NCBI GenBank assembly: GCA_034521025.1
Contig: JAXHMZ010000004.1
Coordinates: 107,315-166,484 of the forward strand
From: Candidatus Campbellbacteria bacterium
Lineage (GTDB): Bacteria > Patescibacteriota > Minisyncoccia > Phycocordibacterales > JAXHMZ01
Direction of reading: 5' to 3'
Length of the DNA: 59,170 bases
The notes beneath the pieces are model-generated. The model saw only the letters and a program-made list of their open reading frames with translations. It did not search any database and was not told the origin of the DNA. This document shows positions 2,635 through 57,093 of this stretch, in pieces. The translations under genes and the position numbers were made by a program. Numbering within the stretch: position 1 is the first letter of the stretch; the number at the start of each line of letters is the position of its first letter.

Positions 2635-4278
2635 GTGGTTATAGATTCTTGCATGAATGAAGAGGTAATTAGGAAAATTTTAGGGTTAAAATTAGATAAA
2701 AAGGTTTGTCTAACACCTTACGAAATGGCTAAGACCATTAAGGTGACTTTTTTTCCGTATGATAAAGAAAAAGTATCAAATAATGTTATCAAGTTTGCAG
2801 AAAAGATTGAGAGTCAGATAAAAGATATTGGTGTTGAAGTCGTACCCTATAATGAATCATTGTCCCACGTCTCTTTTTTAGAAAATCTAAAGAAAGTTAT
2901 AAAAATTACATTAAATAATATTTTTTTTATAATCTATTCATTGTTTAAAATTAATAAAAGAAGAGGGTATATACCATTTGTATCTATTAAAAGTATTTGG
3001 AAAAGAAATAGAATTCAAAAAAATATATCAATAATTTCATTAGGATCTCATCCAGAATGGAAGATGCCTGTGGATTATACGTCTAGTTTATCCGATAATC
3101 AGGTCATATCTATACTTGATTGGCCAAGTGAAATTACTGAAAGGTCATCTTTTGATGATCATTTTAATAAAGCAATGGAACTATTTGCTTTTAATATAAG
3201 TCATGTAGTTCTAGCTACAGATGGAAATAAATTTATCCTATACAATTTCAATCTAGCACATCCTGTTTATAGACTGAATGATAGAGAGGTTAAAGGAGCG
3301 CTTTTATGGGCTCTAATTCCAAAGTTAGCGGCCCCGATAATGCCACCAACACTAAGGGATTTTAAAATTGATAACAATTCTTTTTCTGTAGTAGGGAATA
3401 ATCAAGAAGAACATATTAATGATTTAGTAAACGGATCAAAAAAATTTTCAAAAACAAACCTATATCCTACTGGTAAGAAAGTAGATGATCTACCGTTTAG
3501 AAATGAATTTTATAAATGGATTGGAAAATTACATCTAGATCACAGAAGTGGAATGAGTTATGGTTTTTTGGCAAAACAGTTACCTATAAAGTTGAAAAAC
3601 CCTGAAAAAATTAACAAAGAACCCATAGAAAAAATTTATAAAGACGAAGATGGTTATTACCACGTTTATTTGAATATTAAAAATGAATGGTTTGATGTTA
3701 CTGTTCCGGATGTGTGGGTTTTAACACAAAGATCGGGTTCAGATAAAACTAAAATGGATCCGAAGAGCGATATTATTAAAATTGGTCTAGTGAAAGGTGA
3801 GAAGATAATTCAATTTCCTAAGAATGGTTTTAACTATAAAGAATCAAGACCATCGTTTGATACGAATGTAATTATTGCTCACGCTGTTGGTAACGGTATT
3901 ATTGCAAATTTATTACTCGGATTAGATAAAAGTTCTTATTTTTGTAAACAAGCATATAAAGGTGGTTTTTCCATCAGTCATTGGCATGGTTATTGGAATA
4001 AAAATAAAGTACCAAAAGGTTTACATATGCATGGAATGCAAAATCCACATGTATCTTGTTCATCTCCGCAGTCTGCAATTTACGCACTTCAAGGTAAATT
4101 ACAAACATTTATTAAAGCTTATGAAAATGGAGAAGAATACAAGGGTGACATCCATATAGAACCTCATCATGGAAGCAATGTAACATTCGAGTCAGTTACC
4201 GACCTTGCAGATATTATTTCCGAAGACCTAGAAATTACAAAATTGGGAAATCAATATTTAATAGATTATACTGTATAA
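2635..4278 (+). CDS. Hypothetical protein with C-terminal class II aldolase/adducin-like metal-binding domain (probable start ATG 2653)
   Basis: Ordered motifs GMSYGFLAK, LTQRSG..DII, RPSFD, SHWHG, PHVSCSS, EPHHG resemble the FucA/AraD-family pattern; AT-rich. Confidence 0.55.
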   Translation: MVIDSCMNEEVIRKILGLKLDKKVCLTPYEMAKTIKVTFFPYDKEKVSNNVIKFAEKIESQIKDIGVEVVPYNESLSHVSFLENLKKVIKITLNNIFFIIYSLFKINKRRGYIPFVSIKSIWKRNRIQKNISIISLGSHPEWKMPVDYTSSLSDNQVISILDWPSEITERSSFDDHFNKAMELFAFNISHVVLATDGNKFILYNFNLAHPVYRLNDREVKGALLWALIPKLAAPIMPPTLRDFKIDNNSFSVVGNNQEEHINDLVNGSKKFSKTNLYPTGKKVDDLPFRNEFYKWIGKLHLDHRSGMSYGFLAKQLPIKLKNPEKINKEPIEKIYKDEDGYYHVYLNIKNEWFDVTVPDVWVLTQRSGSDKTKMDPKSDIIKIGLVKGEKIIQFPKNGFNYKESRPSFDTNVIIAHAVGNGIIANLLLGLDKSSYFCKQAYKGGFSISHWHGYWNKNKVPKGLHMHGMQNPHVSCSSPQSAIYALQGKLQTFIKAYENGEEYKGDIHIEPHHGSNVTFESVTDLADIISEDLEITKLGNQYLIDYTV

Positions 4279-7972: not shown

Positions 7973-7991
7973 GCCACCTTAGCTCAGTTGG
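7973..7991 (+). repeat. 19-bp copy of the tRNA-Thr 5' end
   Basis: GCCACCTTAGCTCAGTTGG identical to 8171-8189. Confidence 0.95.
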
Positions 7992-8170
7992 ATAAAACAG
8001 AAACTGCTTTCTGTTTTATCCGGTCCCGAACGCAGAGAGGGAACTTCCGTTGTTGAGCGCAGCGAAACAGGAAGTAGGAGGAAGAGTTTACTCTAGCGAC
8101 TGAGCGAATGTGATAAAATGTCCTAAGAAATATTGCATTAAACGGTTCGTACGATTAGAGTCAGAGTTGT
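7992..8170. mobile_element. Putative non-coding hairpin mini-element at the tRNA-Thr 5' end
   Basis: Bounded by 19-bp tRNA direct repeat; perfect 14-bp hairpin 7990-8021; stem-loops with GAACGCAGAGA (8028-8038) and GAGCGCAGCGA (8055-8065) loops. Confidence 0.55.
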
Positions 8171-8243
8171 GCCACCTTAGCTCAGTTGGTAGAGCATTCG
8201 CTTTGTAAGCGAGCGGTCGTCAGTTCGAGTCTGACAGGTGGCT
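8171..8243 (+). tRNA. tRNA-Thr (anticodon TGT), CCA not encoded
   Basis: Acceptor GCCACCT/AGGTGGC, D arm AGCTCAGTTGGTAGAGC, anticodon arm TTCGC-TTTGTAA-GCGAG, T arm GTCAG-TTCGAGT-CTGAC. Confidence 0.97.
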
Positions 8244-8244
8244 C

Positions 8245-8361
8245 ACGTAGTGAGGCAACAGAAAAAGCTCATTTATGAGCTTTTGTTCAGACGAGAAAAG
8301 TTTGAGCATGTCGTGCGGAGCGCAGCGAGCACGACGCGAAAACTATACAGAATCTGTAGGA
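8245..8361. mobile_element. Putative non-coding hairpin mini-element at the tRNA-Thr 3' end
   Basis: Bounded by 21-bp tRNA direct repeat; hairpins AAAAGCTCA-TTTA-TGAGCTTTT and GTCGTGC-(G)GAGCGCAGCGA-GCACGAC. Confidence 0.55.
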
Positions 8362-8384
8362 TTCGAGTCTGACAGGTGGCTCCA
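8362..8384 (+). repeat. Copy of the tRNA-Thr 3' end (att-like), ending in CCA
   Basis: TTCGAGTCTGACAGGTGGCTC identical to 8224-8244, followed by CA. Confidence 0.95.
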
Positions 8385-11270: not shown

Positions 11271-13307
11271 ATGGCTAAAAAAGATACGAATAAACCCAGC
11301 TACGAGGCTAAAGACATCACAGTCTTAGAAGGTCTTGATCCGGTTCGAAAAAGACCTGGAATGTATATCGGAACAACCGGGCTTGATGGCCTTCATCATT
11401 TGGTTACCGAAATTTTTGACAATTCTCGTGACGAGGCGATGGCTGGAGAAGCGGATCACATAGAAATTGCTCTTCTGCCTGATAATTACGTGCGTATTGT
11501 AGACAACGGAAGAGGTATTCCGGTTGATAAGCACCCCAAAACAAAAGTTTCAGCCCTAGAGACGATCATGACCACGCTTCACGCCGGAGGAAAGTTCGGC
11601 GGAGGCGGATATAAAGTTTCAGGTGGGCTTCACGGAGTTGGGGCTTCTGTTGTTAACGCCTTGTCTGAAGAGATGTCCGTAACTGTACACAAAAATGGTA
11701 ATAGTTACATGCAGAGCTACGAAAGAGGTAAAAGAAAGGCGGCTCTGAAAAAATTAGGTAAAAGCGAATTCCAGGGATCAATAATTACATTCAAACCGGA
11801 CAAGGAAATATTTGAAGATATTAACCTTGATAGAGATAAGATCATCTCTCATATGCGCCAACAGGCATATCTGATAAAAGGTTTGAAAATATCAGTTATT
11901 GACGCCCGTGAATATGAAGGGAAGATAGATACTGATAAATTCTACTTGGAAGATCTGAGGTTAGACGTACCTTCGATGTCTTTCTTCTTTGAAGGCGGTC
12001 TCATTTCTTTGATCAAATTCTATAATCAACACCAGAAACCGGTACATAAAAATATTTTTTATGTTGAAAAAGAAGAAGGAGAGGTATCTGTTGAAATAGC
12101 ACTTCAGTACGTGGACGATATTTCTTCCAAAATTTTTCCATTCGCAAATACCATTTATAACGTTGAAGGTGGAATGCATGTCACGGGATTTAAGACAGCT
12201 TTGACTCGCACTCTTAATTCCTACGCCCGTAACAATAATCTATTAAAGGAATCTGACGATAATTTTACCGGCGAAGATGTATTGGAAGGACTTACCGTTG
12301 TAGTGTCTGTAAAGATGCCGGAAATCCAATTTGAAGGTCAAACCAAAGCAAAGCTGGGATCACCAGAAGCACGTGGAGCGGTTGAGGCAATATTTTCTGA
12401 AAACTTTTCCAGTTTTTTGGAGGAAAATCCCGACGACGGAAAAGCAATTATAAACAAAGTCCTGTTAGCACTAAGAGCTAGAAAAGCTGCCAAAGCCGCT
12501 AAAGACAGTATATTGCGTAAGGGTGCCTTAGAAGGAGTTACTCTGCCCGGCAAATTGGCTGATTGCCAGACAAGGAAAGCCGAAGAAAGTGAGTTGTTTA
12601 TAGTAGAGGGTGATTCTGCCGGTGGTACCGCAAAAGCGGGACGCGATCGCCGAACTCAGGCAATTTTGCCTTTACGCGGAAAAATACTAAATGTGGAGCG
12701 AGCTCGACTGGATAGAATGCTCGGATCTAACGAAATCAAGTCATTGGTTTTGGCTTTAGGTACGGCAATTGGGGAGACATTTAATTTAGAAAAACTTCGC
12801 TACCATAAAATAATCATAGCAACAGACGCTGATGTCGATGGAGCGCATATCAGGACTTTGATACTAACGCTTTTCTATAGATATTTCAGGCCAATAATTG
12901 AAGGTGGATATTTGTATATCGCTCAGCCGCCTCTATACAAAGTAACCCGAGGCAAGGAATCTCACTTCTTTTACACAGAAGCGGCTAAAGATGACTTTTT
13001 CGCGTCACTAGGCGAAGATGTCGAAGAGATCGAAGAAGTTCAGAATAATGAAAACAATTCGGAAGATAATTCTCCTAAACAGAAAAAGTCCAAATACAGT
13101 ATACAAAGATACAAGGGTCTTGGTGAGATGAACGCTGACCAGCTGTGGGAGACGACGATGGACCCAGAGGCAAGGGTATTGAAACAAGTAGAAATAGACG
13201 ACGCGCAAGAAGCAGATCAGATCTTCGGCATCCTTATGGGCACGGATGTTAGCGCAAGAAAATCCTTCATTCAGTCAAACGCAAAAGACGCAACACTAGA
13301 TCTCTAG
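11271..13307 (+). CDS. gyrB: DNA gyrase subunit B
   Basis: EGLDPVRKRPGMYIG, GGLHGVGASVVNALS, EGDSAGG, IATDADVDGAHI, QRYKGLGEMN. Confidence 0.97.
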   Translation: MAKKDTNKPSYEAKDITVLEGLDPVRKRPGMYIGTTGLDGLHHLVTEIFDNSRDEAMAGEADHIEIALLPDNYVRIVDNGRGIPVDKHPKTKVSALETIMTTLHAGGKFGGGGYKVSGGLHGVGASVVNALSEEMSVTVHKNGNSYMQSYERGKRKAALKKLGKSEFQGSIITFKPDKEIFEDINLDRDKIISHMRQQAYLIKGLKISVIDAREYEGKIDTDKFYLEDLRLDVPSMSFFFEGGLISLIKFYNQHQKPVHKNIFYVEKEEGEVSVEIALQYVDDISSKIFPFANTIYNVEGGMHVTGFKTALTRTLNSYARNNNLLKESDDNFTGEDVLEGLTVVVSVKMPEIQFEGQTKAKLGSPEARGAVEAIFSENFSSFLEENPDDGKAIINKVLLALRARKAAKAAKDSILRKGALEGVTLPGKLADCQTRKAEESELFIVEGDSAGGTAKAGRDRRTQAILPLRGKILNVERARLDRMLGSNEIKSLVLALGTAIGETFNLEKLRYHKIIIATDADVDGAHIRTLILTLFYRYFRPIIEGGYLYIAQPPLYKVTRGKESHFFYTEAAKDDFFASLGEDVEEIEEVQNNENNSEDNSPKQKKSKYSIQRYKGLGEMNADQLWETTMDPEARVLKQVEIDDAQEADQIFGILMGTDVSARKSFIQSNAKDATLDL

Positions 13308-13328
13308 GAGTTACACTTCCGTAGATAT

Positions 13329-13365
13329 AAAACCCCGCGTAGCTATTGCAGCGCGGGGTTTTATT
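13329..13365 (+). terminator. Intrinsic terminator after gyrB
   Basis: AAAACCCCGCG-loop-CGCGGGGTTTT. Confidence 0.8.
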
Positions 13366-13524
13366 GCCGACGTAGTGCGAGAGGAATACCAAGGCGAAGC
13401 CTTGAGTATTTCCGAGCCGAGGAGAGCAATATGAGGTTTAATACCCCGCCCCTCTGGGGCGGTCAAAGGGTGAGCGAAGCGAACACCCTTTGAGTCCAGG
13501 GCTTGCCCTGGGGTTTAATACCGA
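13366..13524. mobile_element. 159-bp multi-hairpin REP/MITE-like element, copy 1, flanked by TTATT
   Basis: Two substitutions versus 47713-47871; four hairpins; internal 11-bp direct repeat GGTTTAATACC. Confidence 0.85.
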
Positions 13525-13549
13525 TTATTTGTTCTTTGGTTTTGAGTAA

Positions 13550-14641
13550 TTATCTAACGTAGAATTCTGTGCTTTTGATGTTATTTTTTTCTGAAGATTC
13601 CTTGACGTCGTTGGCCGGATCAGCGTTCAAGTAAAGAGTTTCTCCAGCGTGTATATCGTCAAAGGCAAGTATAAATTCAACTCTATCTCCCGGATATAGT
13701 CTTGGTTGACCTGGAGATCGATAATAATAATTATCTCGAGTTGGTAATAGGGCACTAAAATACCAGTTGTTTGGAACCATTTTAGTTCCGTCGTTCACCA
13801 CATAGAACTTGATCGCCGCTCTGTCATCATCGTTTATCCTTCTTTTTTCGACAAAATCGCCGTCATTGTCTATGGATCCTGTGGCTTCAATAACCAAATT
13901 GAGATCTGAAATGCCGCTTGGATCATTTACTCTACCTTTACGCTCAATAGTGATATATTGAGGTTCTTTTGTTGTAGTTTCTTCTCCATTTTCTTTTTCG
14001 GTCTCTTCTTCATCTTCCTTGTCATCGCCATTATTATCTTCCTCGTTATCACCGTCATCATTTTCTTCGGTCTCTCCTGTTTCTGTGGCAATTTCAGTAT
14101 TAACTACCGTGAGAAATACATCGGAAGTAATGTCTGACTCAAGTCCCCGTACAACAACAGGAATGTCGGTGTATCTATTATCGGTTGTAGTAATGGAGAA
14201 AGATACGGATTCTTCTATATCGTCTAGATCGATCTCATCGTTGCATGATATAGACTCTCCAAATAGCTCGACACTAGTTCCTGTATCGCATTCAAACTCG
14301 ATCGTGTAACTATCGGAATCAATGCTTTTGTTTCTATGCTTTATATCTAACTCCAGAGTATCTCCAGAGTTCATCTCAGTGCTTTCCAACGTGAGTTCCA
14401 ATCTCTCTTCTCCCTTAAAAAGGTTCGTTAAATTAGTACCAAGCTCTGAAATGTTTTGAGGAGCTTGTCCTGCCAACTGAAAGATACCAACTCCTAGAGC
14501 TGAAAATACCGCTAGGATCCCCGCAATTGCCAAAACGATGATCCAGGCTGGGCGTTTGCTTCTGTTATTATTTTCACTGGTCGTACCGTTGGTTATTGGA
14601 CGACTAGCTTCCTCTTTTTGAGGTATATTATTTTCGTTCAT
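13550..14641 (-). CDS. Membrane-anchored surface protein with acidic linker and C-terminal CARDB-like domain
   Basis: N-terminal TM (WIIVLAIAGILAVF), E/D/N-rich linker, ADPANDVKESSEKNNI CARDB-type end. Confidence 0.65.
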   Translation of the reverse strand: MNENNIPQKEEASRPITNGTTSENNNRSKRPAWIIVLAIAGILAVFSALGVGIFQLAGQAPQNISELGTNLTNLFKGEERLELTLESTEMNSGDTLELDIKHRNKSIDSDSYTIEFECDTGTSVELFGESISCNDEIDLDDIEESVSFSITTTDNRYTDIPVVVRGLESDITSDVFLTVVNTEIATETGETEENDDGDNEEDNNGDDKEDEEETEKENGEETTTKEPQYITIERKGRVNDPSGISDLNLVIEATGSIDNDGDFVEKRRINDDDRAAIKFYVVNDGTKMVPNNWYFSALLPTRDNYYYRSPGQPRLYPGDRVEFILAFDDIHAGETLYLNADPANDVKESSEKNNIKSTEFYVR

Positions 14642-40395: not shown

Positions 40396-43318
40396 ATGAC
40401 CCAAAACGCATATAAACAAGCGTTAGCAAAGCTCAATACGGCGCAACGAGCGGCCGTAGAAACAATAGAAGGACCGGTAGTCGTAGTAGCTGGTCCGGGA
40501 ACCGGAAAAACACATGTCTTAACAACACGCATAGCTCACATTTTGCACGAAACAGACTCTACGCCCGATTCAATATTGGCCTTGACTTTTACCGAAGCCG
40601 GAGCTAGCGCTATGCAACTTCGCTTGTATGAACTTATCGGCAAAGACGCGTACAAAACCCAAATTGCAACTTTTCATGGGTTCGCAAACCAAATTATCCA
40701 AGAATTTCCTGAGTACTTCCCGCGTATCATAGGAGCAAGACAGGTTGATTCCTTAGAACGACTCGAATTAATTGAAAAGATCCTCACAGAAGGCAATTTT
40801 GAGCTTCTAAAGCCCTTCGGAAACGAACTCTTCTATGTAAAAAGCATATCTCAGGTAATACAAGACATTAAAAGAGAAGGGTATGATCCTCATAAATTCG
40901 AAAACTTAATAAAAGAGCAGTCAAAAGATTTTGGATCGATCGAAGATCTTTATCATTCAAAAGGAAAAAATGAAGGTGAGATGAAAGGGAAATACAAAGT
41001 CCTTGAAAGAAAGATAGAGAAGAACTTTGAATTACTTCAAGTTTTTCGCGAGTATGAACGCATAAAGCAAGAACAAAAACTTTTTGATTACGAAGATACT
41101 ATTCTTGAGTTACTGTACGCTTTGGAAAATGAAGATGATCTACTTTCAGCTCTTCAAGAGAGATATTTATATATACTTGCTGATGAACATCAAGATTCAA
41201 ACCGCGCGCAAAACAAAATACTAGATCATATCTCGAGTTTTCATGAAAACCCCAATATTTTTATAGTAGGAGACGACAAACAGGCTATATACAGATTTCA
41301 AGGGGCATCACTCGAAAACTTTCAGTATTTCTTTAAACCGGCACCCCGAAGCGACTACAATTGAACTTACCGAGAATTATAGGTCCTCCCAACATATTCT
41401 TGATATCTCACAAGACCTGATATCAAACAATCCGACCCTCAGTGAAAAAACACTGATTGCCGCTACAGACCGCGAGAATATAGACACACTTCTTTTTTCT
41501 TCAAACAATGAAACAGAAGAGGCTCATACAGTTGCGACTGAAATAAGATCTATTCAAAATAACTCTCCTGAAGACACGATCGCTGTACTGTTTAGAAATA
41601 ACAAAGAAGCTCAAGATCTGAGTTTGGCTCTAGAGAGGCAGGGAATTGATTATTTTAAAAGATCCGGCTCAACAGAAGAAATGGATCCTTATACAGAGCA
41701 GTTACTTACTCTCTTGTCCATAGTTGACCACCCAACTGATGAAAACATTGGCAAAGCTTTATTCTTTGACTGCTTTGGTATAGACGCATTAGATATAGCT
41801 GACTTTTTGAAAAGTATCAGGAAAGAAGAAAAAACCATTAGAGACTTAGTAAAAGAGTTGCCAACTAATTCAGAGATAAATGAGTCGATTGAAAAACTCT
41901 TTGAACTCCATAAGTATTCTCACAATCATAGTTTTTTTGATACTTTTGAAAAAACCTTAAAAGAAACTGGCTTACTTGAAAGTATATTGAAGTCAGAGAG
42001 AAGTAGGGTAATTATTGAAGAAATACAAACACTATACGAAAGAGCCAAGACTCTTGAAAGTAGGGAAGAGAGTATTACTTTGGATTCTTTCCTTTCCTAT
42101 ATTACTAAAGCACGTGAATATAATGCGTTACAACTGCACACAAAAGAAACCAAGGAAGAAAAAGTTATACTATCCACCGTGCATGGTGTAAAAGGACTCG
42201 AATACGACGTTGTTTTCGTTACAGGATTAGAGGATAAGCGATGGGGAGGTAAAAGGAAACCGGAATATTTTTATCTTCCGGAATTAAAAGCCCTAAAGGT
42301 TGGCGAGGAAGGAAATATTAAAGAGGACGAGAGGCGTCTCTTATATGTTGCTATTACGCGCGCCAGAAAAAAGGCCATTCTTTCTTATCCAAGATCAAAT
42401 TCAGAAGGACGAAAATATTTACCCTCTCAGTTTCTCGATGAGCTTGGACTGAGCGAAAACAAGGGTCCCGAGGTCAGCACTTATATAGATCAGGAAAGAT
42501 TTAGTCCGTCACGAAAGCTTTTGGATAAAGACCTGGTGGAATTTCTCTTTCGGAAGCAAGGCCTAAATCCGACTGCCGTCAACAAATATCTTGCCTGTCC
42601 CTGGGAGTACTTTTTTTTGACATTGATGCGACTTCCACAGCCACCAAATAGGAGCGCTGTATTTGGAACAGCAGTACATAAAACTCTTCAAGAATTCTTT
42701 GATGAAAGAACGAAGAAAAATGACCTTAGCATAACTGAGGTGCTCGCATTAATGGAAAGAGAAATAAAAAGCTCACACTTAGAAGCCCTAGACAAAGAAA
42801 AGCTGATCAAACGTGGAAATGAATTCCTGCCTGGATTTATAGAAGAAGGTAGAAAAAGATGGCAGAGAGAAAGCGAGACAGAAAGATATATTAAACAACC
42901 GCTGGAGACAACTAATGGTAATTTATTACTTTCCGGTAAATTAGATAAGATCGATAGAGATGAAGGGAGTGAAGGCTTGATAGTAACAGACTTCAAAACC
43001 GGCGAACCCAAGTCGAGAAATAATATAGAAGGAGAGACCAAAGACTCTAACGGTGACTATAAACGTCAGCTCGTATTTTACTCGCTTTTGCTAGAGCTTA
43101 ACGGCGAGAAAATGAAAGAAGGGATCATTGATTTTGTAAAACCCAACAAAAGCGGTAAATATAAACACGAACGATTTTCTATCAGCAAAGAAGAAAGGGC
43201 AGAGCTAAAAAATCAAATAGAGAGGATCTCTTCTGAGATCCTCTCTATGGAATTCACACAAAAAGGTTGTGATAAAAAGGATTGCGAGTGGTGCCGCCTG
43301 GCAAACCTTTTGCTGTAG
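40396..43318 (+). CDS. UvrD/PcrA-family helicase with C-terminal PD-(D/E)XK (RecB-like) nuclease; single gene frameshifted at ~41338
   Basis: AGPGTGKT, ADEHQD, GDDKQAIYRFQGA; shifted frame RHPEATTIELTENYRS; STVHGVKGLEY, RRLLYVAITRA; nuclease GKLDKID..DFKTG..QLVFY. Confidence 0.88.
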
Positions 43319-43324
43319 TTGTAA

Positions 43325-44126
43325 CTAGTTCAGCTCGATAAGTCTGTCTATGATAGCAGCTAAAGGTTCTTCTGGAATTGCTCCGCTAATTCCCACGGCA
43401 TTACCACCTTCAGAAAACACGGCCAAACTTCCGGCCTCAGGTCCCAACTGCGTTAGAGTATTGTATATATCATCCCTAGCGTCCTCTGTGATCTCCGCAT
43501 CACTTATAAGTAGGCTATATGGCGTTCCGGTACCTCCGGCGTTTTGAGCGTCCTCCAAATGTGCTTCCACGATAGACAACGTCTCTTCATTGGCAAAACA
43601 ACTTTCAAACTCCTCCACGTTGGCTCCCGCGTCTTGCGCAAATTCAGGCAACAGATCATGATCCAATCCATCGTTGGAAGGAGTTTCTTCATAGATCCTA
43701 TCGATAAAGGTCCAGAAACCTTCTTCTCCGGCTGACTGAGCTACACACTCAGAAGCAACAGCTTCCGGAATTGCTTTCTGGTGAAGTTGCTCTAGAGGGA
43801 AGTGTCTATATACCCAAGCAAATTCACCTTCGTCATAGTTTTCTATTAAATTGTTCAAAGTATCATGATGTCGCTTGCAGAATGGACATTCCAAGTCAGA
43901 ATAATCAACGAGCTTTACGGGAGCGTCTAGACTTCCTCGAATATAATCAGTTGAATCTACTGATTCATATGAAATGGAAGAGATGGTCGGGCCACTAGAA
44001 CCGGGATCTACCTGCTGATGAATCGTTGTTATCGTTTACAAAGATTATAGCGCCCGCCGTCAGCGCACCGATCAAAAGACCGGCAACTATGATCGAAATT
44101 GGTAAAAAAAGATTTGAAGATTTCAT
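43325..44126 (-). CDS. DsbA/thioredoxin-like protein, left-arm copy with frameshift near 44005
   Basis: CPFC motif; mirror of intact 56287-57087. Confidence 0.85.
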
Positions 44127-44189
44127 ATATTTTTATGCTTTGTTTTGCTCTATGCTCTGCGTATTTCTAATATGACCAGTCTATCATAT

Positions 44190-44763
44190 TTAAAAGGGAA
44201 GAGTATGGGTAACCGTAGAATCGAGTGGTTTGTCCCAATCCGAGACATCTATAGGAATATTACGCAATCCATCATTTGATCGGAATTTCACGTACCCGTT
44301 TTCCTTTATAAAATCATACACGGCTTTGGTAACTCTTACATCTTGCTCACAGTACTCGCGAAGCTTCTCTAATTCTCCGTTGTTCCACCACTCAATGGCT
44401 TCCAAGCCATGTCCGCTCTTGCGGTGCCCTAGAGTGGCCTCGGCAATAGCGTCTAACCCAATTCTTCGTCCTAAGGAATTCTTGATCGACTCCAAGAGAT
44501 CTATGCTTTTGAACTCAGCTCAGATCTCCCGGTAATATTCATCGAGAATGGGAATATCAAAGTGCATTTGAATTAAAGCCGATAGATGCGTTGACTTCTG
44601 AGTACTGGCCAAGCTTGGATAGATCTTCTTCAAAATAACTAGAAAACTCTTCGGTCTCTGTATCGTGAATTGATACCAGTGACAGATCAAGCATAGACGG
44701 CTCGCGACCACCCACATCAGCAAAAGTATTCTTCGTTTCTATATCAAACGTGACCAATCTCAT
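44190..44763 (-). CDS. RNase H-like (DEDD/YprB-type) 3'-5' exonuclease, left-arm copy garbled ~44520-44610
   Basis: VTFDIET, YCEQDV; mirror of intact 55648-56223. Confidence 0.8.
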
Positions 44764-44765
44764 AC

Positions 44766-46017
44766 TTAAACTTCTCTTTTATAAATAGCGACGACCTCCT
44801 CCAAACTTTTTTGGCCGAGTGTTTTTCCGTACTCATCCTTTAGGATCAACTTATCGGAATTAAATGCTTCTTCGTCTACAACTAGAGCAAATTTAGATCC
44901 ATATTTCTTCGATCGCTTCAACTGCGAATCGATTGTATCATAACGCATGTCAACTACAGTTCTTATCCCATTTTTACGCAAGCGCGTCGCAACGTTGTCG
45001 GCGTATACTTTATATTGTCTGTCCGAAACACAAACGTAAATATCAGTAAATGAAATTTCTTTTGGTAAGAGATCATAAGTTTCCAGTACGTCACGAATTG
45101 TGACATCGCCCATACCAAAACCTACGGCAGATACAGGTTCTTCACCAAATACCTCTAAAAGATCGTCGTAACGCCCACCACCAAAAAGAGATCGGCTGTT
45201 ATCGGGATTTGTATCAAATATTTCAAAAATTACCCCGGTATAATAATCAAAACCGCGTACCAAATATGGTTTGAATTTTACGTTATTTATCCCTCGCGCA
45301 CTAAGTTCTTCGATAAGTTGATCGATCCTTTCGTTCGCTTCGAGACCTACCAATAGGTCGCCACCTATCAACTCATTTAGCTTCTCATCAAAATCATCAA
45401 TTTTATCTTTCTTGTCCAACAGTCTATACACCGCCTGTTTCTTTTTTGGATCAAGCTCTAATTCCTCGAATTTATCTTCGAGAATACTTCTATCGTTTAT
45501 GTATATTTCATATTGATCTTCCTTCAAGCCAAATCTTTTTAGAAGTTCATTCGCCAGATCAATTATCTCGATTTCGGCATCTATACCATCTATGCCAAAC
45601 AGATCGGCGTTAAGCTGATAATGCTCACGCAGGCGACCGCGTTGCGGGCGTTCATAACGAAATACATTAGGAATCGAAAACAAGCGCTGAGGAAAAGCCA
45701 TCGCCTTACGCCTTGAAGCAATCATACGCGCGACCGTGGGTGTCATTTCCGGTCGAAGAGTTACGTTTCTACCGCCACGATCCATGAATGTGTAAGTTTG
45801 CTCGCTTACTATTTCCTCGCTGGTTTTGTCCGTATATAACTCGCTGTATTCTAAAGGAGAAGCGTTGTATTCCTTGTATCCGAACAAAGTCAGCGGTTGA
45901 GCGCATTATGTCAAAGATATAGTTTTGTATAGCTTGTTCTTCAGGATAAAAGTCACGCACTCCTTTGTAACTTTCCGTAGTAACGTTTTTAGATACCTTG
46001 CTTTTTTCCTCAGACAT
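44766..46017 (-). CDS. hisS: Histidine-tRNA ligase, left-arm copy with +1 frameshift near 45895
   Basis: LRPEMTPTVAR, RYERPQRGRLREHYQ, LVRGFDYY, GGGRYD. Confidence 0.93.
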
Positions 46018-46038
46018 TGGAAATATTGTACCAAAGTG

Positions 46039-46794
46039 ATGGAAAAATACGAGAACAAAAATATGATTCTAGCTGAAAAAAGCACAGGCGAGACAATGGG
46101 GCAATTAAGGCAGCGGGTTTTCTCTGAATTAAGTCTAGACCCGAACACTAAACTGACGTTTGCCGGCCGTCTAGATCCACTCGCAAGCGGTGTGGTCGTT
46201 TTTCTCCTCAATGAAAGAAGATTTCAAAAAGATGAGTTTCTGTCTCTGAATAAATCCTACAGCTTTCAGATCATACTTGGATTAAAAACTGACACCGGAG
46301 ACCCCTTGGGATTGATTGAATGTGTGGATTTCTCTAGAAAGATCGAGGAAGCTGAAGTTATAAATACTCTTAAAAAATTTGAGAGTAAATACAGACAAAA
46401 GTATCCGAAATTTTCATCAAGAAAAGTAGACGGGAGGGCCTTGTTTGAACACACGCGAAACCAAAACGAAGTAAAAATTCCAGATCATGAAATTGAAATA
46501 TTTGCTCTGAGTCTACAAAAAACCCGAGAAATTAAAAAAGAAGATCTTTTAGATAATATATTTACTCTGATTAGAAAAGTTGAAGGAGATTTTAGGCAAG
46601 AGAAAATAATCAAAAGGTGGCAAGAGATCGAAAATGACATACCAAATAAAGTTCAAGTGCTAGATTGTAATGTTGAATGCTCCAGTGGAACTTATGTACG
46701 CGTATTAACGGAAGATATAGCTAAAGAGTTAAACACTGTCGCGACAACACAAAACATACATCGCAGTAAGATTGGACATTTACAAACCAAATAA
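46039..46794 (+). CDS. TruB-like pseudouridine synthase, divergent and without PUA domain (true start likely 46039)
   Basis: FAGRLDPLASG with catalytic Asp, TDTGD, PKFSSRKVDG, CSSGTYVR. Confidence 0.8.
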   Translation: MEKYENKNMILAEKSTGETMGQLRQRVFSELSLDPNTKLTFAGRLDPLASGVVVFLLNERRFQKDEFLSLNKSYSFQIILGLKTDTGDPLGLIECVDFSRKIEEAEVINTLKKFESKYRQKYPKFSSRKVDGRALFEHTRNQNEVKIPDHEIEIFALSLQKTREIKKEDLLDNIFTLIRKVEGDFRQEKIIKRWQEIENDIPNKVQVLDCNVECSSGTYVRVLTEDIAKELNTVATTQNIHRSKIGHLQTK

Positions 46795-46864
46795 TTATTG
46801 TATTGTTGCATTAGTACTCTGATCTTTAAGACACCGAATACACACACTACCGAAAGGAGCGGAA

Positions 46865-47680
46865 ATGATCCATATCCCGGGAGTTCCAGGGAAGATCAAT
46901 GAGATCAAGGAGTATCCGTTTTCAATTGGAAACTTGGTAGTCAACGCGCTTGGTAAACCAACAGATTGGAAGGGAGAACTTGAAAATCTTCACGACCAAA
47001 CGACCTACAACCGCCTCCTCTCTATAGCCAGAGAGCTGGGCGCAACTAGGATCTTTTGTCCATACCCTGTCCACGGTACGACCATTTCAAGCTCCAAGAT
47101 CAAAACACTTGATGTTTCCCGCACCAAAAGAAGGATCTACCGTGAAGTTAAGGCAGATGGAGCCGAAATTGATAAAGAGGAGGCTTACGGGCTCGCTTCC
47201 GGCGATTGCCACACAGTAGCCCTACAAGACCCGGTTACGGGAAAAACAATTGCTATTCACTTCAATCGTGAAAACGGAGTAGATGACGACATTCTTTCCA
47301 AGGCTCTTCGACACTTCAGGAAGGGAAGTGCTGAAAGGCTAATTGCCGTAATTACTCTCGGCATCGACTCTGCTCACTTTAAACACGATTGGGAAAACCA
47401 TAAGCATGGAAAGAAGAATCGTCGACGTACCTGTGAGTTGATAGGAAAGTACGGACCTGAGATAGTAGATTGGCCCTTAGGCGAGGGCAAAATCGACCTC
47501 AGGCGAATCGCAGCGAGGAAGTTGGTTGAAGCAGGTCTGCTACCCTCAAACATCTACGCGGACCTTTTCGACACCTACTTTGATCCTAGGTTCTGGAGTC
47601 ACCGCGCTAGTCAAACCAGAGGTAGTGCCAAATTCGGTGAAAAGGGAAGAAACATGGTTCTTGTTGTTAACAAGGGCTGA
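46865..47680 (+). CDS. YfiH/PgeF (laccase-domain) family protein, divergent
   Basis: VHG, ADG, GDC, AIH, FWSHR, GRNMV motif order. Confidence 0.7.
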   Translation: MIHIPGVPGKINEIKEYPFSIGNLVVNALGKPTDWKGELENLHDQTTYNRLLSIARELGATRIFCPYPVHGTTISSSKIKTLDVSRTKRRIYREVKADGAEIDKEEAYGLASGDCHTVALQDPVTGKTIAIHFNRENGVDDDILSKALRHFRKGSAERLIAVITLGIDSAHFKHDWENHKHGKKNRRRTCELIGKYGPEIVDWPLGEGKIDLRRIAARKLVEAGLLPSNIYADLFDTYFDPRFWSHRASQTRGSAKFGEKGRNMVLVVNKG

Positions 47681-47712
47681 GGACGGTTCCTTGGAACCGT
47701 CCTCTTTTTATT
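47679..47712 (+). terminator. Intrinsic terminator after YfiH-like gene
   Basis: GAGGACGGTTCC..AACCGTCCTC followed by TTTTT. Confidence 0.8.
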
Positions 47713-47871
47713 GCCGACGTAGAGCGAGAGGAATACCAAGGCGAAGCCTTGAGTATTTCCGAGCCGAGGAGAGCAATATGAGGTTTAATACCCCGCCCCT
47801 CTGGGGCGGTCAAAGGGTGAGCGAAGCGAACACCCTTTGGGTCCAGGGCTTGCCCTGGGGTTTAATACCGA
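47713..47871. mobile_element. 159-bp multi-hairpin element, copy 2, flanked by TTATT
   Basis: Near-identical to 13366-13524. Confidence 0.85.
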
Positions 47872-47874
47872 TTA

Positions 47875-48343
47875 TTAGCTAGCATTTAAATCAGAAGTGC
47901 AGTTGGGACACCGCGTTGCCGACTTGTGGATCAACTCATAGCAAAAAGGACACTTTGATACAGTCTCTTCGGATTTATTTACATTAGTATCTTTACTTTC
48001 ACGTAATCGGTTTACGGCTTTTACCAAAATAAAGACAGCAAAAGCCGTGATCAGAAAACTCACTGACTGATTAATAAATTCTCCGTAATTGATCGTTATA
48101 GCACCCGCAGCTTCCGCTTCTGCCAGAGTGGAGAAGTCAACGCCTGAAGAAAGGTTAACAAAAAGATTTGAAAAATCAGCTCCACCGACCAACATTCCAA
48201 CCGGAGGCATTATTATGTCTTCCACTATCGAGTGGACGAGCGAATTAAACGCTGCGCCGATCACTATACCGACTGCCAAATCAGACCACGCTACCCCTTC
48301 AGGCGCGTACTCGTTTGAAATCATTTACAGGAACGCCCCTCAT
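47875..48343 (-). CDS. mscL: Large-conductance mechanosensitive channel, left-arm copy with garbled 5' end
   Basis: DLAVGIVIGAAF, YGEFIN; mirror of intact 52084-52545. Confidence 0.88.
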
Positions 48344-48401
48344 ATTGTCAGTATATTATACACAAAAATATCATTACTTTATATGATATACTCGCTATTT
48401 G

Positions 48402-49088
48402 ATGGAAAAAGACAGACCAGACGAGCCTGCACAGGCAAAAATAGTTAGAGAAAGAGTTGAAGAAGAAGCAAATAGGCGAGTCTCGCTTATAGGCAACGAA
48501 TTCGCGAAAGGTTTCGACGTAATTAGAGACTATCCCAAATCCGTAACTTTTTTTGGTTCCTCTCGTCTCTCTGAGTCACACCCATATTACAAAAAAGCTC
48601 AAGAAGTTGCCCACCGCTTATCAGATGACGGGTTTACCGTGGTAACCGGCGGCGGCCCGGGCATAATGGAGGCGGCCAATCGTGGCGCATTTGAGGCAGG
48701 AGGAGACTCTTTGGGATTCAATATTGAACTGCCATTTGAGCAAGTTATTAATAAGTACGTTACAGAATCTCTTTCTTTTAATTACTTCTTTTCACGAAAA
48801 GTAATGCTTGCTTTCTCAGCGGAAGCCTATATTTACTTTCCTGGAGGATTCGGAACTCTGGATGAATTTTTTGAAATTGTAACTTTGGTTCAAACGCAGA
48901 AGATCCCGCGAGTACCAATAATTCTTGTCGGTGATGAATTCTGGGGAGCTTTGGATGATTTTATTCACAATATGTTGGTGAACAAATATCAAACTATCGG
49001 CCCGGGAGACGAAGAGCTGTACACAATGACAGAAGATATAGATGAAATTTCTAAAATAGTCAAAAACGCGCCTAAGCGTAAGGAATAA
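48402..49088 (+). CDS. LOG/TIGR00730-family Rossmann-fold protein
   Basis: TGGGPGIMEAANRGA, YFFSRKVM, PGGFGTLDE. Confidence 0.92.
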   Translation: MEKDRPDEPAQAKIVRERVEEEANRRVSLIGNEFAKGFDVIRDYPKSVTFFGSSRLSESHPYYKKAQEVAHRLSDDGFTVVTGGGPGIMEAANRGAFEAGGDSLGFNIELPFEQVINKYVTESLSFNYFFSRKVMLAFSAEAYIYFPGGFGTLDEFFEIVTLVQTQKIPRVPIILVGDEFWGALDDFIHNMLVNKYQTIGPGDEELYTMTEDIDEISKIVKNAPKRKE

Positions 49089-49123
49089 ACAAAAAACCGC
49101 TTTTGAGAAGCGGTTTTTTGTTT
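49087..49123. terminator. Bidirectional terminator
   Basis: AAACAAAAAACCGCTT-loop-AAGCGGTTTTTTGTTT. Confidence 0.85.
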
Positions 49124-49141
49124 TAGTTCTATATTATCTGC

Positions 49142-49640
49142 TTATCCTTTAACCTCAGGCAGGTCTACCGTAGTGGTAATTTGAACTCTGATCGCACTAC
49201 CACCTTCGGTTACTACTCGCTCGTCCTCGTCCTCTTCAAAGGTACCGTTTTCGTTTGTATCTGTGTACAGCTCTACGTAGTACTGATCTCCTTCGGATGT
49301 GGACTCATCAAGCTCTACATTACCCGTCAAATCCGTGTTCCAGCTTCCACAAAAGCAGAACCGATAACTTCTCCTGGCTCACCGTCTACTTTGTTTCTTA
49401 CAACGACAAAACCGTCTTCTGTAAGATTGAGACTGTCATAAAAACTACGTCTTCCGGGAATTTGATCGTTCACTATTACTGAATTTTCACTGTCCCCACT
49501 AACACTGTTAATTCTTCTTCATTTTGTTCTGGAGGGTTAACCTCTTCACTGCTAGGCCGTGTTAAAAGTAACGCAACCACCGCAACTACCAGCACAAGAA
49601 GTACCCCGACTGTTATGATAATTGATCTATTATTATTCAT
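49142..49640 (-). CDS. Membrane-anchored acidic surface protein (DUF7282-like), left-arm copy frameshifted
   Basis: Mirror of intact 50790-51287. Confidence 0.6.
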
Positions 49641-49683
49641 ATGCACACAGTATACAACAAAAACACCATTTACAACAATGGCC

Positions 49684-50220
49684 TTATATTAATCCCTTCT
49701 TAGCCAAAATCGCGGAAATAGGATCGGTGGACTTACCGCGAGCCGGACTAATTTCACGTCCGTACGCTTTAAGCTTATAAGAAATGTCAAACCATTCATC
49801 TTTGGGCCAAAGATCCATCAACTCTTCTCGACGATCTCGGGTCATTGGTATTGACCAGACCAAATTTTCTCGCCAATCGTATAACGTGCGTATCCACCGC
49901 AATTCCATCAACTTCGCCGAAAAGATGCCCGCGAACAACGTTGGCGGTCTTTCTGCCGACACCGGGTAGGGAGGTACAGTTCTTCCATACTACTTTTGGA
50001 ATTCTTGCTTTAAATTTATTCTTGATAATACGAGCCGAGTCACGAATGTACTTTGCTTTAGCTCGGCTAAACCCGATTTCTAAAATATCCTTTCGCAGAT
50101 CCTCGACGGAGGCCTCAGCGAACTTGTTTAAATGTGTGTATTTTTTTAAATAATTTTTCCGTAACCTGATCTACTTTTTTGTCCGTAGTTTGAGCCGATA
50201 AATGACCCCGCAAAAAGAAG
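49684..50220 (-). pseudogene. nth: Endonuclease III, 5'-truncated at the fold-back point and frameshifted (left-arm copy)
   Basis: Corrected reading LLFAVILSAQTTDKKV..GVGRKTANVV..AVDTHV. Confidence 0.85.
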
Positions 50221-50236: not shown

Positions 50237-50746
50237 TATCGGCTAAAACTACAGACAAAGAGAAATCAGGTAAGAAAAAATTGTAAAAAATACAACACAT
50301 TAAACAAGTTCGCTGAGGCCTCCGTAGAGGATCTGCGAAAGGATATTTTAGAAATCGGGTTTAGCCGAGCTAAAGCAAAGTACATTCGTGACTCGGCTCG
50401 TATTATCAAGAATAAATTTAAAGCAAGAATTCCAAAGAGTATGGAAGACCTTACTTTTCTACCCGGAGTTGGCAGAAAGACCGCCAACGTTGTTCGAGGT
50501 CATCTTTTTGGTGAAGTTGATGGAATTGCAGTGGATACGCACGTTCTGCGATTGGCGAGAAAATTTGGTCTGGTCAATACCAATGACCCCGAGATCGTCG
50601 AGAGAGAGTTGATGTATCTTTGGCCTAAAGATGAATGGTTTGACATTTCTTATAAGCTTAAAGCGTACGGACGTGAAATTAGTCCGGCTCGCGGTAAGTC
50701 CACCGATCCTATTTCCGCGATTTTGGCTAAGAAGGGATTAATATAA
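50237..50746 (+). pseudogene. nth: Endonuclease III, 5'-truncated (right-arm copy)
   Basis: HhH LPGVGRKTANVV and VDTHV intact; start missing. Confidence 0.85.
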
Positions 50747-50789
50747 GGCCATTGTTGTAAATGGTGTTTTTGTTGTATACTGTGTGCAT

Positions 50790-51287
50790 ATGAATAATAA
50801 TAGATCAATTATCATAACAGTCGGGGTACTTCTTGTGCTGGTAGTTGCGGTGGTTGCGTTACTTTTAACACGGCCTAGCAGTGAAGAGGTTAACCCTCCA
50901 GAACAAAATGAAGAAGAATTTAACAGCGTTAGTGGGGACAGTGAAAATTCAGTAATAGTGAACGATCAAATTCCCGGAGACGTAGTTTTTTATGACAGTC
51001 TCAATCTTACAGAAGACGGTTTTGTTGTTGTAAGAAATGAAGTAGACAGTGAGCCCGGAGAAGTTATCGGTTCTGCTTTTGTGGAGGCCGGTACAGATAT
51101 GACGGGTAATGTAGAGCTTGATGAGTCCACATCCGAAGGAGATCAATACTACGTAGAGCTGTACACAGACACAAACGAAAACGGTACCTTTGAAGAGGAC
51201 GAGGACGAGCGAGTAGTAACCGAAGGTGGTAGTGCGATCAGAGTTCAAATTACCACTACGGTAGACCTGCCTGAGGTTAAAGGATAA
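50790..51287 (+). CDS. Membrane-anchored acidic surface protein, DUF7282-like
   Basis: N-terminal TM; VNDQ..DGFVVV..PGEVIG..DTNENGTFE (DxDxDG-like) pattern. Confidence 0.6.
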   Translation: MNNNRSIIITVGVLLVLVVAVVALLLTRPSSEEVNPPEQNEEEFNSVSGDSENSVIVNDQIPGDVVFYDSLNLTEDGFVVVRNEVDSEPGEVIGSAFVEAGTDMTGNVELDESTSEGDQYYVELYTDTNENGTFEEDEDERVVTEGGSAIRVQITTTVDLPEVKG

Positions 51288-51305
51288 GCAGATAATATAG
51301 AACTA

Positions 51306-51342
51306 AAACAAAAAACCGCTTCTCAAAAGCGGTTTTTTGTTT
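51306..51342. terminator. Bidirectional terminator (mirror copy)
   Basis: Reverse complement of 49087-49123. Confidence 0.8.
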
Positions 51343-52027
51343 ATTCCTTACGCTTAGGCGCGTTTTTGACTATTTTAGAAATTTCATCTATATCTTCTGT
51401 CATTGTGTACAGCTCTTCGTCTTCTGGGCCGATAGTTTGATATTTGTTCACCAACATATTGTGAATAAAATCATCCAAAGCTCCCCAGAATTCATCACCG
51501 ACAAGAATTATTGGTACTCGCGGGATCTTCTGCGTTTGAACCAAAGTTACAATTTCAAAAAATTCATCCAGAGTTCCGAATCCGCCGGGGAAATAAATAT
51601 AGGCTTCCGCTGAGAAAGCAAGCATTACTTTTCGTGAAAAGAAGTAATTAAAAGAAAGAGATTTTGTAACATACTTATTAATAACTTGCTCAAATGGCAG
51701 TTCAATACTGAATCCCAAAGAGTCTCCTCCTGCCTCAAATGCGCCACGATTGGCCGCCTCCATTATGCCTGGGCCGCCGCCGGTTACCACGGTAAACCCG
51801 TCATCGGATAAGCGGTGGGCAACTTCTTGAGCTTTTTTGTAATATGGGTGTGACTCAGAGAGACGAGAGGAACCAAAGAAAGTTACGGATTTGGGATAGT
51901 CTCTAATTACGTCGAAACCTTTCGCGAATTCGTTGCCTATAAGCGAGACTCGCCTATTTGCTTCTTCTTCAACTCTTTCTCTAACTATTTTTGCCTGTGC
52001 AGGCTCGTCTGGTCTGTCTTTTTCCAT
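51341..52027 (-). CDS. LOG/TIGR00730-family protein (mirror copy)
   Basis: Same motifs as 48402-49088. Confidence 0.9.
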   Translation of the reverse strand: MEKDRPDEPAQAKIVRERVEEEANRRVSLIGNEFAKGFDVIRDYPKSVTFFGSSRLSESHPYYKKAQEVAHRLSDDGFTVVTGGGPGIMEAANRGAFEAGGDSLGFSIELPFEQVINKYVTKSLSFNYFFSRKVMLAFSAEAYIYFPGGFGTLDEFFEIVTLVQTQKIPRVPIILVGDEFWGALDDFIHNMLVNKYQTIGPEDEELYTMTEDIDEISKIVKNAPKRKE

Positions 52028-52083
52028 AATAGCGAGTATATCATATAAAATAATTATATTTTTGTGTATAATATACTGACAAT

Positions 52084-52545
52084 ATGAGGGGTGTTCTTAA
52101 TGAATTCAAAAAATTCGCCCTAAGGGGTAGTGTGGTTGATTTGGCAGTCGGTATAGTGATCGGCGCGGCGTTTAATTCGCTCGTCCACTCGATAGTGGAA
52201 GACATAATAATGCCTCCGGTTGGAATGTTGGTCGGTGGAGCTGATTTTTCAAATCTTTTTGTTAACCTTTCTTCAGGCGTTGACTTCTCCACTCTGGCAG
52301 AAGCGGAAGCTGCGGGTGCTATAACGATCAATTACGGAGAATTTATTAATCAGTCAGTGAGTTTTCTGATCACGGCTTTTGCTGTCTTTATTTTGGTAAA
52401 AGCCGTAAACCGATTACGTGAAAGTAAAGATACTAATGTAAATAAATCCGAAGAGACTGTATCAAAGTGTCCTTTTTGCTATGAGTTGATCCACAAGTCG
52501 GCAACGCGGTGTCCCAACTGCACTTCTGATTTAAATGCTAGCTAA
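52084..52545 (+). CDS. mscL: Large-conductance mechanosensitive channel with C-terminal CxxC..CxxC ribbon (intact copy)
   Basis: EFKKFALRGSVVDLAVGIVIGAAF; CPFC..CPNC. Confidence 0.95.
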   Translation: MRGVLNEFKKFALRGSVVDLAVGIVIGAAFNSLVHSIVEDIIMPPVGMLVGGADFSNLFVNLSSGVDFSTLAEAEAAGAITINYGEFINQSVSFLITAFAVFILVKAVNRLRESKDTNVNKSEETVSKCPFCYELIHKSATRCPNCTSDLNAS

Positions 52546-52548
52546 TAA

Positions 52549-52699
52549 TCGGTATTAAACCCCAGGGCAAGCCCTGGACTCAAAGGGTGTTCGCTTCGCT
52601 CACCCCTTGAGCCCCAGAGGGGCGGGGTATTGAACCCATCTGCCTCGGCTCGGAAATACTCAAGGCTTCGCCTTGGTATTCCTCTCGCTCTACGTCGGC
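52549..52699. mobile_element. Mirror copy of the 159-bp element, with small deletions
   Basis: Reverse complement of 47713-47871. Confidence 0.8.
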
Positions 52700-52731
52700 A
52701 ATAAAAAGAGGACGGTTCCAAGGAACCGTCC

Positions 52732-53547: not shown

Positions 53548-53617
53548 TTCCGCTCCTTTCGGTAGTGTGTGTATTCGGTGTCTTAAAGATCAGAGTACTA
53601 ATGCAACAATACAATAA

Positions 53618-54373: not shown

Positions 54374-54394
54374 CACTTTGGTACAATATTTCCA

Positions 54395-55645: not shown

Positions 55646-55647
55646 GT

Positions 55648-56223: not shown

Positions 56224-56286
56224 ATATGATAGACTGGTCATATTAGAAATACGCAGAGCATAGAGCAAAACAAAGCATAAAAATAT

Positions 56287-57087: not shown

Positions 57088-57093
57088 TTACAA

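Follow-up and report, generated by a model that had tools for sequence, protein, structure and literature searches.

A small protein-less repeat with an internal guide, a candidate insertion element of Patescibacteria

Here we describe a small structured repeat, the TTATT element, in a 59,170-nucleotide (nt) stretch of DNA from a Candidatus Campbellbacteria bacterium (the window, which corresponds to C4:107315-166484 of the assembly under study, G000; 685,693 bases, 5 contigs, about 43% GC). A gyrB-like open reading frame (ORF) of 678 amino acids (aa; 11271-13307) lies upstream of an intrinsic terminator, and the first copy of the element follows directly on that terminator's tail (Table 1). 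A second copy stands in the same way behind the terminator of a 271-aa ORF. Both copies are 164 nt long and are preceded by TTATT, which forms part of their GATTATT 3' ends as well (13523-13529 and 47870-47876); they differ by two substitutions (T/A at 13376/47723 and A/G at 13494/47841). The original prediction had described these two copies, their TTATT flanks, their internal repeats and three GC hairpins, and its coordinates proved correct to the base. It had also noted, correctly, that the element carries no ORF and no terminal inverted repeats: no ORF is conserved among the copies, and the ends (5' GCCGACG... and 3' ...ACCGATTATT) are not inverse complements. It overlooked a third copy in the window, two copies on another contig (C5) and a wide occurrence outside this genome.

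Table 1 Features of the TTATT element and its copies (window coordinates unless contig C5 is named)
Feature	Position	Strand	Description
Copy 1 (c1)	13366-13529	+	full 164-nt form; covariance model score 174.8 bits
Left core and copy 2 (c2)	47708-47876	+	body 47713-47876; 176.5 bits; sub-parts at copy 1 positions +34347
Mirror copy (c3)	52544-52704	-	92% identical; indels in guide and hp1; inside inverted near-duplicate of 40716-50200
Copy 4 (c4)	C5:14190-14313	-	without first 45 nt; starts TCCGAG right after terminator and TTTTTATT
Copy 5 (c5)	C5:28299-28390	-	without exactly 77 nt between the two GGTTTAATACC repeats; one repeat kept
gyrB intrinsic terminator	13329-13362	+	hairpin of -20.9 kcal/mol, then TTTTATT; last bases run into left core
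Intrinsic terminator of 271-aa ORF	47679-47709	+	-19 kcal/mol; ORF 46865-47680
Left core TTATT	13361-13365	+	target-side sequence; pairs with internal guide in helix P1
Conserved 5' motif GCCGACGTAG(T/A)GCGAG	13366-13381	+	first 2-5 nt are the element side of P1
Hairpin A	13382-13413	+	tip GCGAAGC; stem covaries; extended by G-C pairs flanking a tandem GA/GA motif
Conserved motif (C)CGAGCCGAGGAG	13414-13424	+	3' side of purine-rich rod
Internal guide AGCAATATGAGG	13425-13436	+	complements left core and first element bases (P1) and 3' tail (P1')
First GGTTTAATACC repeat	13435-13445	+	in short forms, T-loop-like 7-nt loop closed by GG/CC
Variable insert	13446-13511	+	three covarying hairpins; not in copy 5 nor in ~90-nt forms
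hp1	13446-13462	+	GC hairpin of variable insert
hp2	13464-13492	+	GC hairpin with conserved loop GAGCGAAGCGA
hp3	13496-13511	+	GC hairpin of variable insert
Second GGTTTAATACC repeat and 3' tail GATTATT	13512-13529	+	repeat 13512-13522; tail is the element's own core copy

The genome holds five matches: copies 1 and 2, the mirror copy and copies 4 and 5 on contig C5. The mirror copy sits in an inverted near-copy and has both flanks in common with copy 2, and is thus not an independent insertion. Window segments 40716-50200 and 50237-59170 are inverted near-copies of each other that are 97% identical, reach the contig end and meet at a hinge near 50218. Their identity decays at the hinge and is 92% over the last 659 bases; the differences are clustered and include indels. 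A 1-base indel leaves hisS as 373 + 82 aa in the left arm and as an intact 416 aa in the right arm, and the N-termini of mscL differ between the arms. The inverted near-duplicate is probably a fold-back (chimeric long-read) misassembly and not a real inverted duplication. The four independent copies have a mutual identity of 96-99%, and their flanks are unrelated right up to the core, the short motif that borders them. Copy 5 stands after a weak hairpin and a T-tract, on the strand of rplJ, whose start codon is 47 nt downstream.

The count of copies that the original prediction had proposed thus rose by two independent ones in this genome. In 11 of 60 other genomes of the order, all from different families, BLASTN detected relatives with 71-85% identity; no empty site with a single TTATT came to light. 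A covariance model (R1), built from eight copies out of five genomes, placed the family in 134 of the 401 genomes of the order and in 93 of its 223 genera; copy numbers range from 1 to at least 7 per genome. At least 120 GTDB species-genome stretches contained the exact pattern CGACGTAGAGCGAG-N20-50-TCCGAGCCGAGGAG. Nearly all of these were Patescibacteria (also known as the candidate phyla radiation, CPR) and they came from several classes, with labels that include Paceibacteria, Kaiser-, Yonath-, Nomura-, Komeili-, Buchanan-, Doudna- and Shapirobacteria. Among the viral contigs scanned for a phage vector, the exact motif pair was absent. An Rfam 15 cmscan of positions 13000-14000 (E ≤ 10) returned weak terminator-hairpin matches only, none of them in the element, and our search of the literature on CPR repeats, ribozymes and non-coding RNA (ncRNA) found no description of it; the family appears to have been undescribed so far. 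CPR bacteria have tiny, streamlined genomes that are thought to carry little mobile DNA, and a protein-less element nevertheless occurs in a third of one order's genomes and in several CPR classes. With the covariance model, its members can now be annotated as such instead of being called small ORFs or novel small RNAs. A few element-bearing bins were labelled Gammaproteobacteria or Roseivirgaceae, and many were auto-labelled 'Saccharibacteria'; the oddly labelled bins are probably mis-binned or mis-labelled CPR contigs.

The minimal form of the element, of about 90 nt, has the flank core and 2-5 variable bases in front of an almost invariant, purine-rich rod, which is made up of CGACGTAGAGCGAG, hairpin A and TCCGAGCCGAGGAG in this order. 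The guide comes next, followed by a T-loop-like loop of 7 nt (TTTAATA) and a tail that closes with the core. These short forms have hairpin A and one short closing hairpin only; longer forms carry 1-3 hairpins within the loop of the closing hairpin, and the family falls into size classes of ~85-93, ~100-125 and ~155-176 nt. This bears on the earlier suggestion of a nested sub-module between the direct repeats. Copy 5, which is without exactly the 77 nt between them, agrees with it, but family-wide the region is a variable loop of 0-3 hairpins and not clearly a separate transposon. The element folds with far greater stability than shuffled sequences (RNA -74.4 kcal/mol, z -6.0; DNA z -6.3). In an alignment of 45 distinct sequences, itself fitted to the covariance model, 92.8% of cells are paired, compared with about 50% in slid-partner controls, and 41 of 43 pairs change on both sides. 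Helices 1-2 of hairpin A are 97-100% paired, with double changes in 13 of 14 pairs. Kink-turn and tRNA-like readings of the rod and of a four-way junction, made by eye, were discarded on bulge geometry and linker lengths, and ARAGORN calls no tRNA.

The guide can pair with the core and 5' bases in one helix and with the 3' tail in another. It is therefore a continuous complement of the element's 3' end joined to its 5' end, with one recurrent irregularity (an A.C mismatch or a bulge) at the core. On the P1 side, TATT and the first element bases pair with the guide and change in concert across copies. There are at least nine compensatory types of 5' end and guide, such as GCC/GGC, AGC/GCT, AAC/GTT and GGC/GCC, with GTC/GAC, TCGCC/GGCGA, CCG/CGG and CACC/GGTG as further examples. 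On the P1' side, the 3' tail pairs with an overlapping downstream part of the guide (CAGG/CCTG, AAAGGG/CCCTTT, TAGGAT/ATCCT, TAGTCC/GGACTA). With both junctions the guide forms canonical helices of 8-13 bp, and in the integrated state P1 and P1' compete for a common AAUA. Duplex energies computed for 24 distinct end types were better with a copy's own guide than across copies (permutation p < 0.0001 for P1 and 0.0006 for P1'). A single guide for both junctions, together with a core that changes with it, would be the signature of site choice programmed by base pairing. The same principle is at work in IS200/IS605 insertion sequences (IS), bridge RNAs and group II introns, and genome-engineering tools have been built on it.

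The core is 3-5 nt long (TTATT in this genome), and the element is always located directly 3' of a flank core like its own terminus. When the class of the left-flank core was set against that of the 3' terminus for 139 copies, the diagonal held TATT 84 times, TAT(A) 8 times and TTAC 7 times (chi-square 115, p 6e-24, in a statistic that ignores phylogeny). Conservation of the upstream flank is limited to the core and about three T residues, and the downstream flank has none; outside the core, the match of a left flank to the copy's 3' tail is marginal (p 0.05, positions -8 to -6). The claim that TTATT serves as a target motif is borne out by this correspondence and by the site of copy 4 at rplT. 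There, the final lysine codon of rplT and its TAA stop are read from the opposite strand of the TTATT that ends the element, and in a modelled empty site rplT is intact with a single core and runs on for 15 codons without one. A TTATT was therefore most likely present at the target before insertion. rplT (L20) and mscL, both convergent to their copies, take their stop codons from the complement of the terminal TTATT (C5:14190-14194 and window 47872-47877); the mscL ORF (47875-48324, minus strand) overlaps the right TTATT, and its stop codon consists of the terminal TT of copy 2 and a flanking A. To judge from these overlaps, the insertion site would have covered the ends of both genes without damage to them.

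Terminator T-tracts had been put forward as the target, and this part of the original prediction did not hold for the family at large. Under a uniform definition (a hairpin of at most -8 kcal/mol followed by a T-rich tail), all 4 independent copies in the genome adjoin a terminator, compared with 12% of non-coding TTATT sites (P = 0.0002-0.007). In the order sample the figure is 12 of 39 copies (31%) versus 9.6% of control sites (p 0.007), but CPR-wide it is 7 of 79 (9%), at the 7.9% background. Adjacency is thus strong in this genome, moderate in the order and at background in the phylum; the determinant of insertion is therefore the core and not the terminator, and terminator tails that end in a core are a frequent, harmless supply of it in some lineages.

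Signs of turnover are found at several places. The only other genome of the same genus (G001) has no copy; its spacer downstream of gyrB is ~156 nt shorter and holds only the terminator followed by TTTTTTAAT. Likewise, a copy in G342 faces orthologous spacers without the element in G295 and G071. Copies are near-identical within a genome, 15-27% diverged between genomes and not syntenic. Head-to-tail dimers with a single common core occur at three loci (L083, L105 and L153; for example ...GCTTTTATT joined to AGCGACGTAAAGCGAG...), the arrangement that would follow from insertion of a new copy at the terminal core of a resident one. At least one copy is reduced to a 3'-terminal fragment (L032:706-816), and others are interrupted by additional sequence (L072).

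On balance, we favour the view that the repeats are a family of small (~85-175 nt), protein-less, non-autonomous, guide-defined insertion elements of Patescibacteria. The non-autonomous character had been proposed before and agrees with what was found, namely a gene-less sequence that is multi-copy and at least 96% identical in this genome, absent from G001 and non-syntenic elsewhere. The element would move as a folded single strand, more likely DNA than RNA, in which the guide presents both junctions and picks a new core through base pairing. A trans-acting enzyme may dock on the conserved rod and cut and join right after the core, in a manner comparable to the 'peel-and-paste' of IS200/IS605. 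Terminator T-tracts ending in TTATT would be convenient, harmless targets in a compact genome, which would explain the local association with terminators.

Among known systems, the element would work most like the single-strand elements of the IS200/IS605 type. IS200/IS605 elements and the non-autonomous palindrome-associated transposable elements (PATEs) transpose by single-strand peel-and-paste, catalysed by the Y1 HUH transposase TnpA (PMC3201880, PMC3597680), and IS608 recognizes its cleavage sites through guide pairing (PMC3201880). In common with these, the TTATT element has no terminal inverted repeats and no long target duplication, is strand-specific and lies immediately 3' of a short core that resembles its own 3' terminus. 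Its ends are hairpin-rich, a guide within the element would specify its junctions by base pairing, the core varies in step with that guide, and one sub-family uses TTAC. By contrast, it has one central guide (8-13-bp helices) where the IS have two 4-nt guides at the feet of hairpins. Its hairpin A and hp3 or closing hairpin are unrelated, whereas IS ends are two similar subterminal hairpins. No autonomous relative with the element's ends was found, and Y1 is absent from this genome and from a third of the carriers. The element thus fails two tests of IS200/IS605 membership, paired similar end hairpins and a cognate TnpA.

Several observations weigh against an insertion element of this kind, foremost those on the enzyme. 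Neither Y1_Tnp (PF01797) nor RVT_1 has a match in this genome. Y1_Tnp occurs in 228 of the 401 genomes of the order and is weakly enriched in carriers of the element (67% versus 52%, odds ratio 1.9, p 0.004), yet 44 of the 134 carriers, including the single-contig genomes G183 and G192, are without it. Larger elements with the same ends around a transposase, a search suggested at the outset, were not found at IS200/IS605, reverse transcriptase (RT) or Y1-like loci. The R1 model showed no similarity to the element and no autonomous partner at IS200/IS605 and RT loci, and at six Y1-like loci it returned one ordinary truncated copy, beside a Y1 gene with different flanking repeats. Neighbour-gene clustering gave no recurrent family at 39 order-level or 80 CPR-wide loci, and no transposase or RT was linked to the copies there. 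Nor do the analyses of the family escape caveats: the statistics on its members ignore phylogeny, the covariation alignment was fitted to the model, and a strand test (G.U 64 versus A.C 45, p 0.08) gave a weak asymmetry that does not tell the folded strand or molecule apart. Between families the element is 76-85% identical, when gyrB is only 70% identical within the genus, and the high conservation of its unpaired motifs would also fit a functional RNA. Finally, no filled and empty pair of sites was found at base resolution. An exact-pattern metagenome scan for the empty copy 2 site gave 0 matches, no relative turned up in a metagenome scan anchored on the protein of the downstream gene, and genus-level spacers lack the element but are too diverged for base resolution. 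Recent activity and a target duplication, both part of the original prediction, could accordingly not be shown; target duplication, insertion beside a core and a left core owned by the element cannot be formally separated, the rplT site of copy 4 being the sole evidence. The partner enzyme, or its absence, would reveal how DNA moves in these uncultured organisms and would account for the many 'structured repeats' that mark gene ends, some of them around tRNA genes, and confuse CPR annotation and ncRNA prediction. A retro-element was also considered and rejected: RVT_1 is sparse (16 of 58 genomes tested), unlinked to the element and uncorrelated with it, besides being absent from this genome.

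Other known systems resemble the element in part. Repetitive extragenic palindromic (REP) sequences and bacterial interspersed mosaic elements (BIMEs), with their REP-associated tyrosine transposases (RAYTs; PMC3333891, PMC8266576), are likewise intergenic, structured and modular and often lie behind genes or between convergent genes; the GTAG tetranucleotide is found in the element's conserved 5' motif, and Y1-type genes are frequent in the order. REPs, however, are high-copy palindromes of 20-40 nt, whereas the element has units of 85-175 nt with several distinct helices and a low copy number (1-10), and the one RAYT-like gene inspected (L072) is flanked by another repeat, CAATCGTGACTGTCCCCATT. 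With class C (IIC) group II introns (PMC1702495) the element shares, in this genome, insertion a few bases after a terminator hairpin, in the T-tract, and a short flank sequence that pairs with an internal one, comparable to the intron- and exon-binding sites IBS1-EBS1. Unlike these introns, which have domains I-VI, exceed 600 nt and usually carry an RT ORF, it has 164 nt, no ribozyme domains and no RT; there is no Rfam intron match, RT genes are unlinked and terminator adjacency is not family-wide. Miniature inverted-repeat transposable elements, which derive from DDE transposons, differ from it in that it has no terminal inverted repeats and that only a direct core of 3-5 nt is common to its two sides, with no target-site duplication of fixed length. 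It also differs from the bridge (seek) RNA of IS110/IS1111, an ncRNA of insertion sequences with a DEDD recombinase, in having a single guide and not separate target- and donor-binding loops; neighbour clustering showed no recombinase ORF within or next to copies, PF01548 itself not having been searched.

Within the genome, the element also resembles small modules that flank tRNA genes. An 11-nt loop, GAGCG(A/C/T)AGCGA, occurs 16 times in the 686-kb genome, compared with about 1 expected; of the 16 occurrences of this loop (GAGCGNAGCGA), 5 are in element copies (the mirror copy included, copy 5 not) and most others are beside tRNA genes. Beside tRNA-Thr in the window (8171-8244; region 7973-8384), flanking small hairpin modules copy its 5' and 3' ends, and the module behind this gene begins with CGTAGTGAGG, a start common to the element. 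These modules, found in the same genome and phylum, follow the plan of the element: after a CGTAG.GAGG start come a hairpin and an antisense stretch, then a second hairpin that bears the GAGCG(A/C/T)AGCGA loop, and finally, on the 3' side, upstream sequence in a second copy. They copy 20-25 nt of the tRNA end, whereas the element copies only its core of 3-5 nt; they too are apparently undescribed in the literature searched. The R1 model matched none of the tRNA-flanking modules of this genome, and homology rests on the common motifs only. The shared motifs point to a super-family of gene-end elements with one docking hairpin.

A bolder proposal, which we regard as possible but doubtful, is that the TTATT element and the tRNA-end-linked modules form an undescribed class of nucleic-acid-guided mobile element in CPR bacteria. 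Its unit would be gene-free, with a single guide that pairs with the target core and both of its own ends, and a change of guide and core would re-address it (as in the TATT, TAT and TTAC sub-families). Cutting and joining at the core, by way of a circular single-stranded intermediate, would fall to a conserved host enzyme or to the folded nucleic acid.

The repeats might instead be a functional structured ncRNA, although we consider this rather unlikely. Such an RNA could act in cis as a 3'-end or processing module, cut itself after UUAUU as a ribozyme, or bind a protein; gene conversion would keep the copies alike. Covariation is strong in all helices, the fold has its z-score of -6 and the unpaired motifs are invariant across CPR classes. 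The loop expansions resemble those of structured RNAs, one guide presents both ends identically, like a cleavage substrate, and three copies in this genome follow terminators in the sense of the upstream gene. However, orientation to flanking genes is even CPR-wide (17/16/15/14 over four configurations, from crude ORF calls), which argues against a co-transcribed role. There is no conserved promoter or terminator and no match to an Rfam ribozyme or RNA family, even at the permissive threshold. Only a third of the genomes carry the family, their copies (1 to at least 7) stand in non-orthologous places, and truncated fragments and tandem dimers exist. Random orientation, patchy distribution and this insertion debris make a function at the RNA level less likely.

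We consider it improbable that a tyrosine recombinase of the host or of a phage moves the element as a folded recombination site, in the way of integron attC and CTX-phage attP. The guide and the joined ends would then form a duplex 'attP' on a single-stranded circle, which exchanges strands with an identical chromosomal core of 5-8 bp (TTTTATT). Identity between left flank and 3' end often reaches 6-8 T-rich bases, the guide complements the joined ends continuously apart from the one conserved irregularity, and the related tRNA-flanking modules rebuild tRNA ends like integrase-borne islands. Yet the duplex, at only 12-14 bp, is below known Xer and integrase sites, the attC R/L box consensus is not in the sequence, and no recombinase gene is linked, the largest neighbour cluster being an ABC-type protein at 6 of 80 loci; a serine-recombinase-like ORF was present at 4 of 80. 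A passive, terminator-associated repeat spread by segmental duplication or assembly error, with no dedicated mechanism, would suit one of the three window copies (the mirror copy in its fold-back-like near-duplicate) but is highly improbable, as the four other copies have unrelated flanks up to the core and the same precise ends recur in hundreds of genomes and independent assemblies.

Two observations concern the Y1-type genes of the order, apart from the insertion-element reading itself. Order-wide, ORFs of ~220-260 aa match only the C-terminal two-thirds of the Pfam Y1_Tnp model, and more than half of the order's genomes hold several copies of them, which is unusual for such small genomes. 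One locus (L072; G385:C29:5800-10200, positions 1146-1313 and 2727-3040) is a hot-spot of repeats. A 244-aa ORF resembling a Y1 (HUH) transposase lies there between inverted copies of CAATCGTGACTGTCCCCATT, and a truncated copy of the TTATT element abuts one side; ~700 nt beyond the other side of the ORF is an element copy with several extra insertions, one of which duplicates the guide GCTAATATA.

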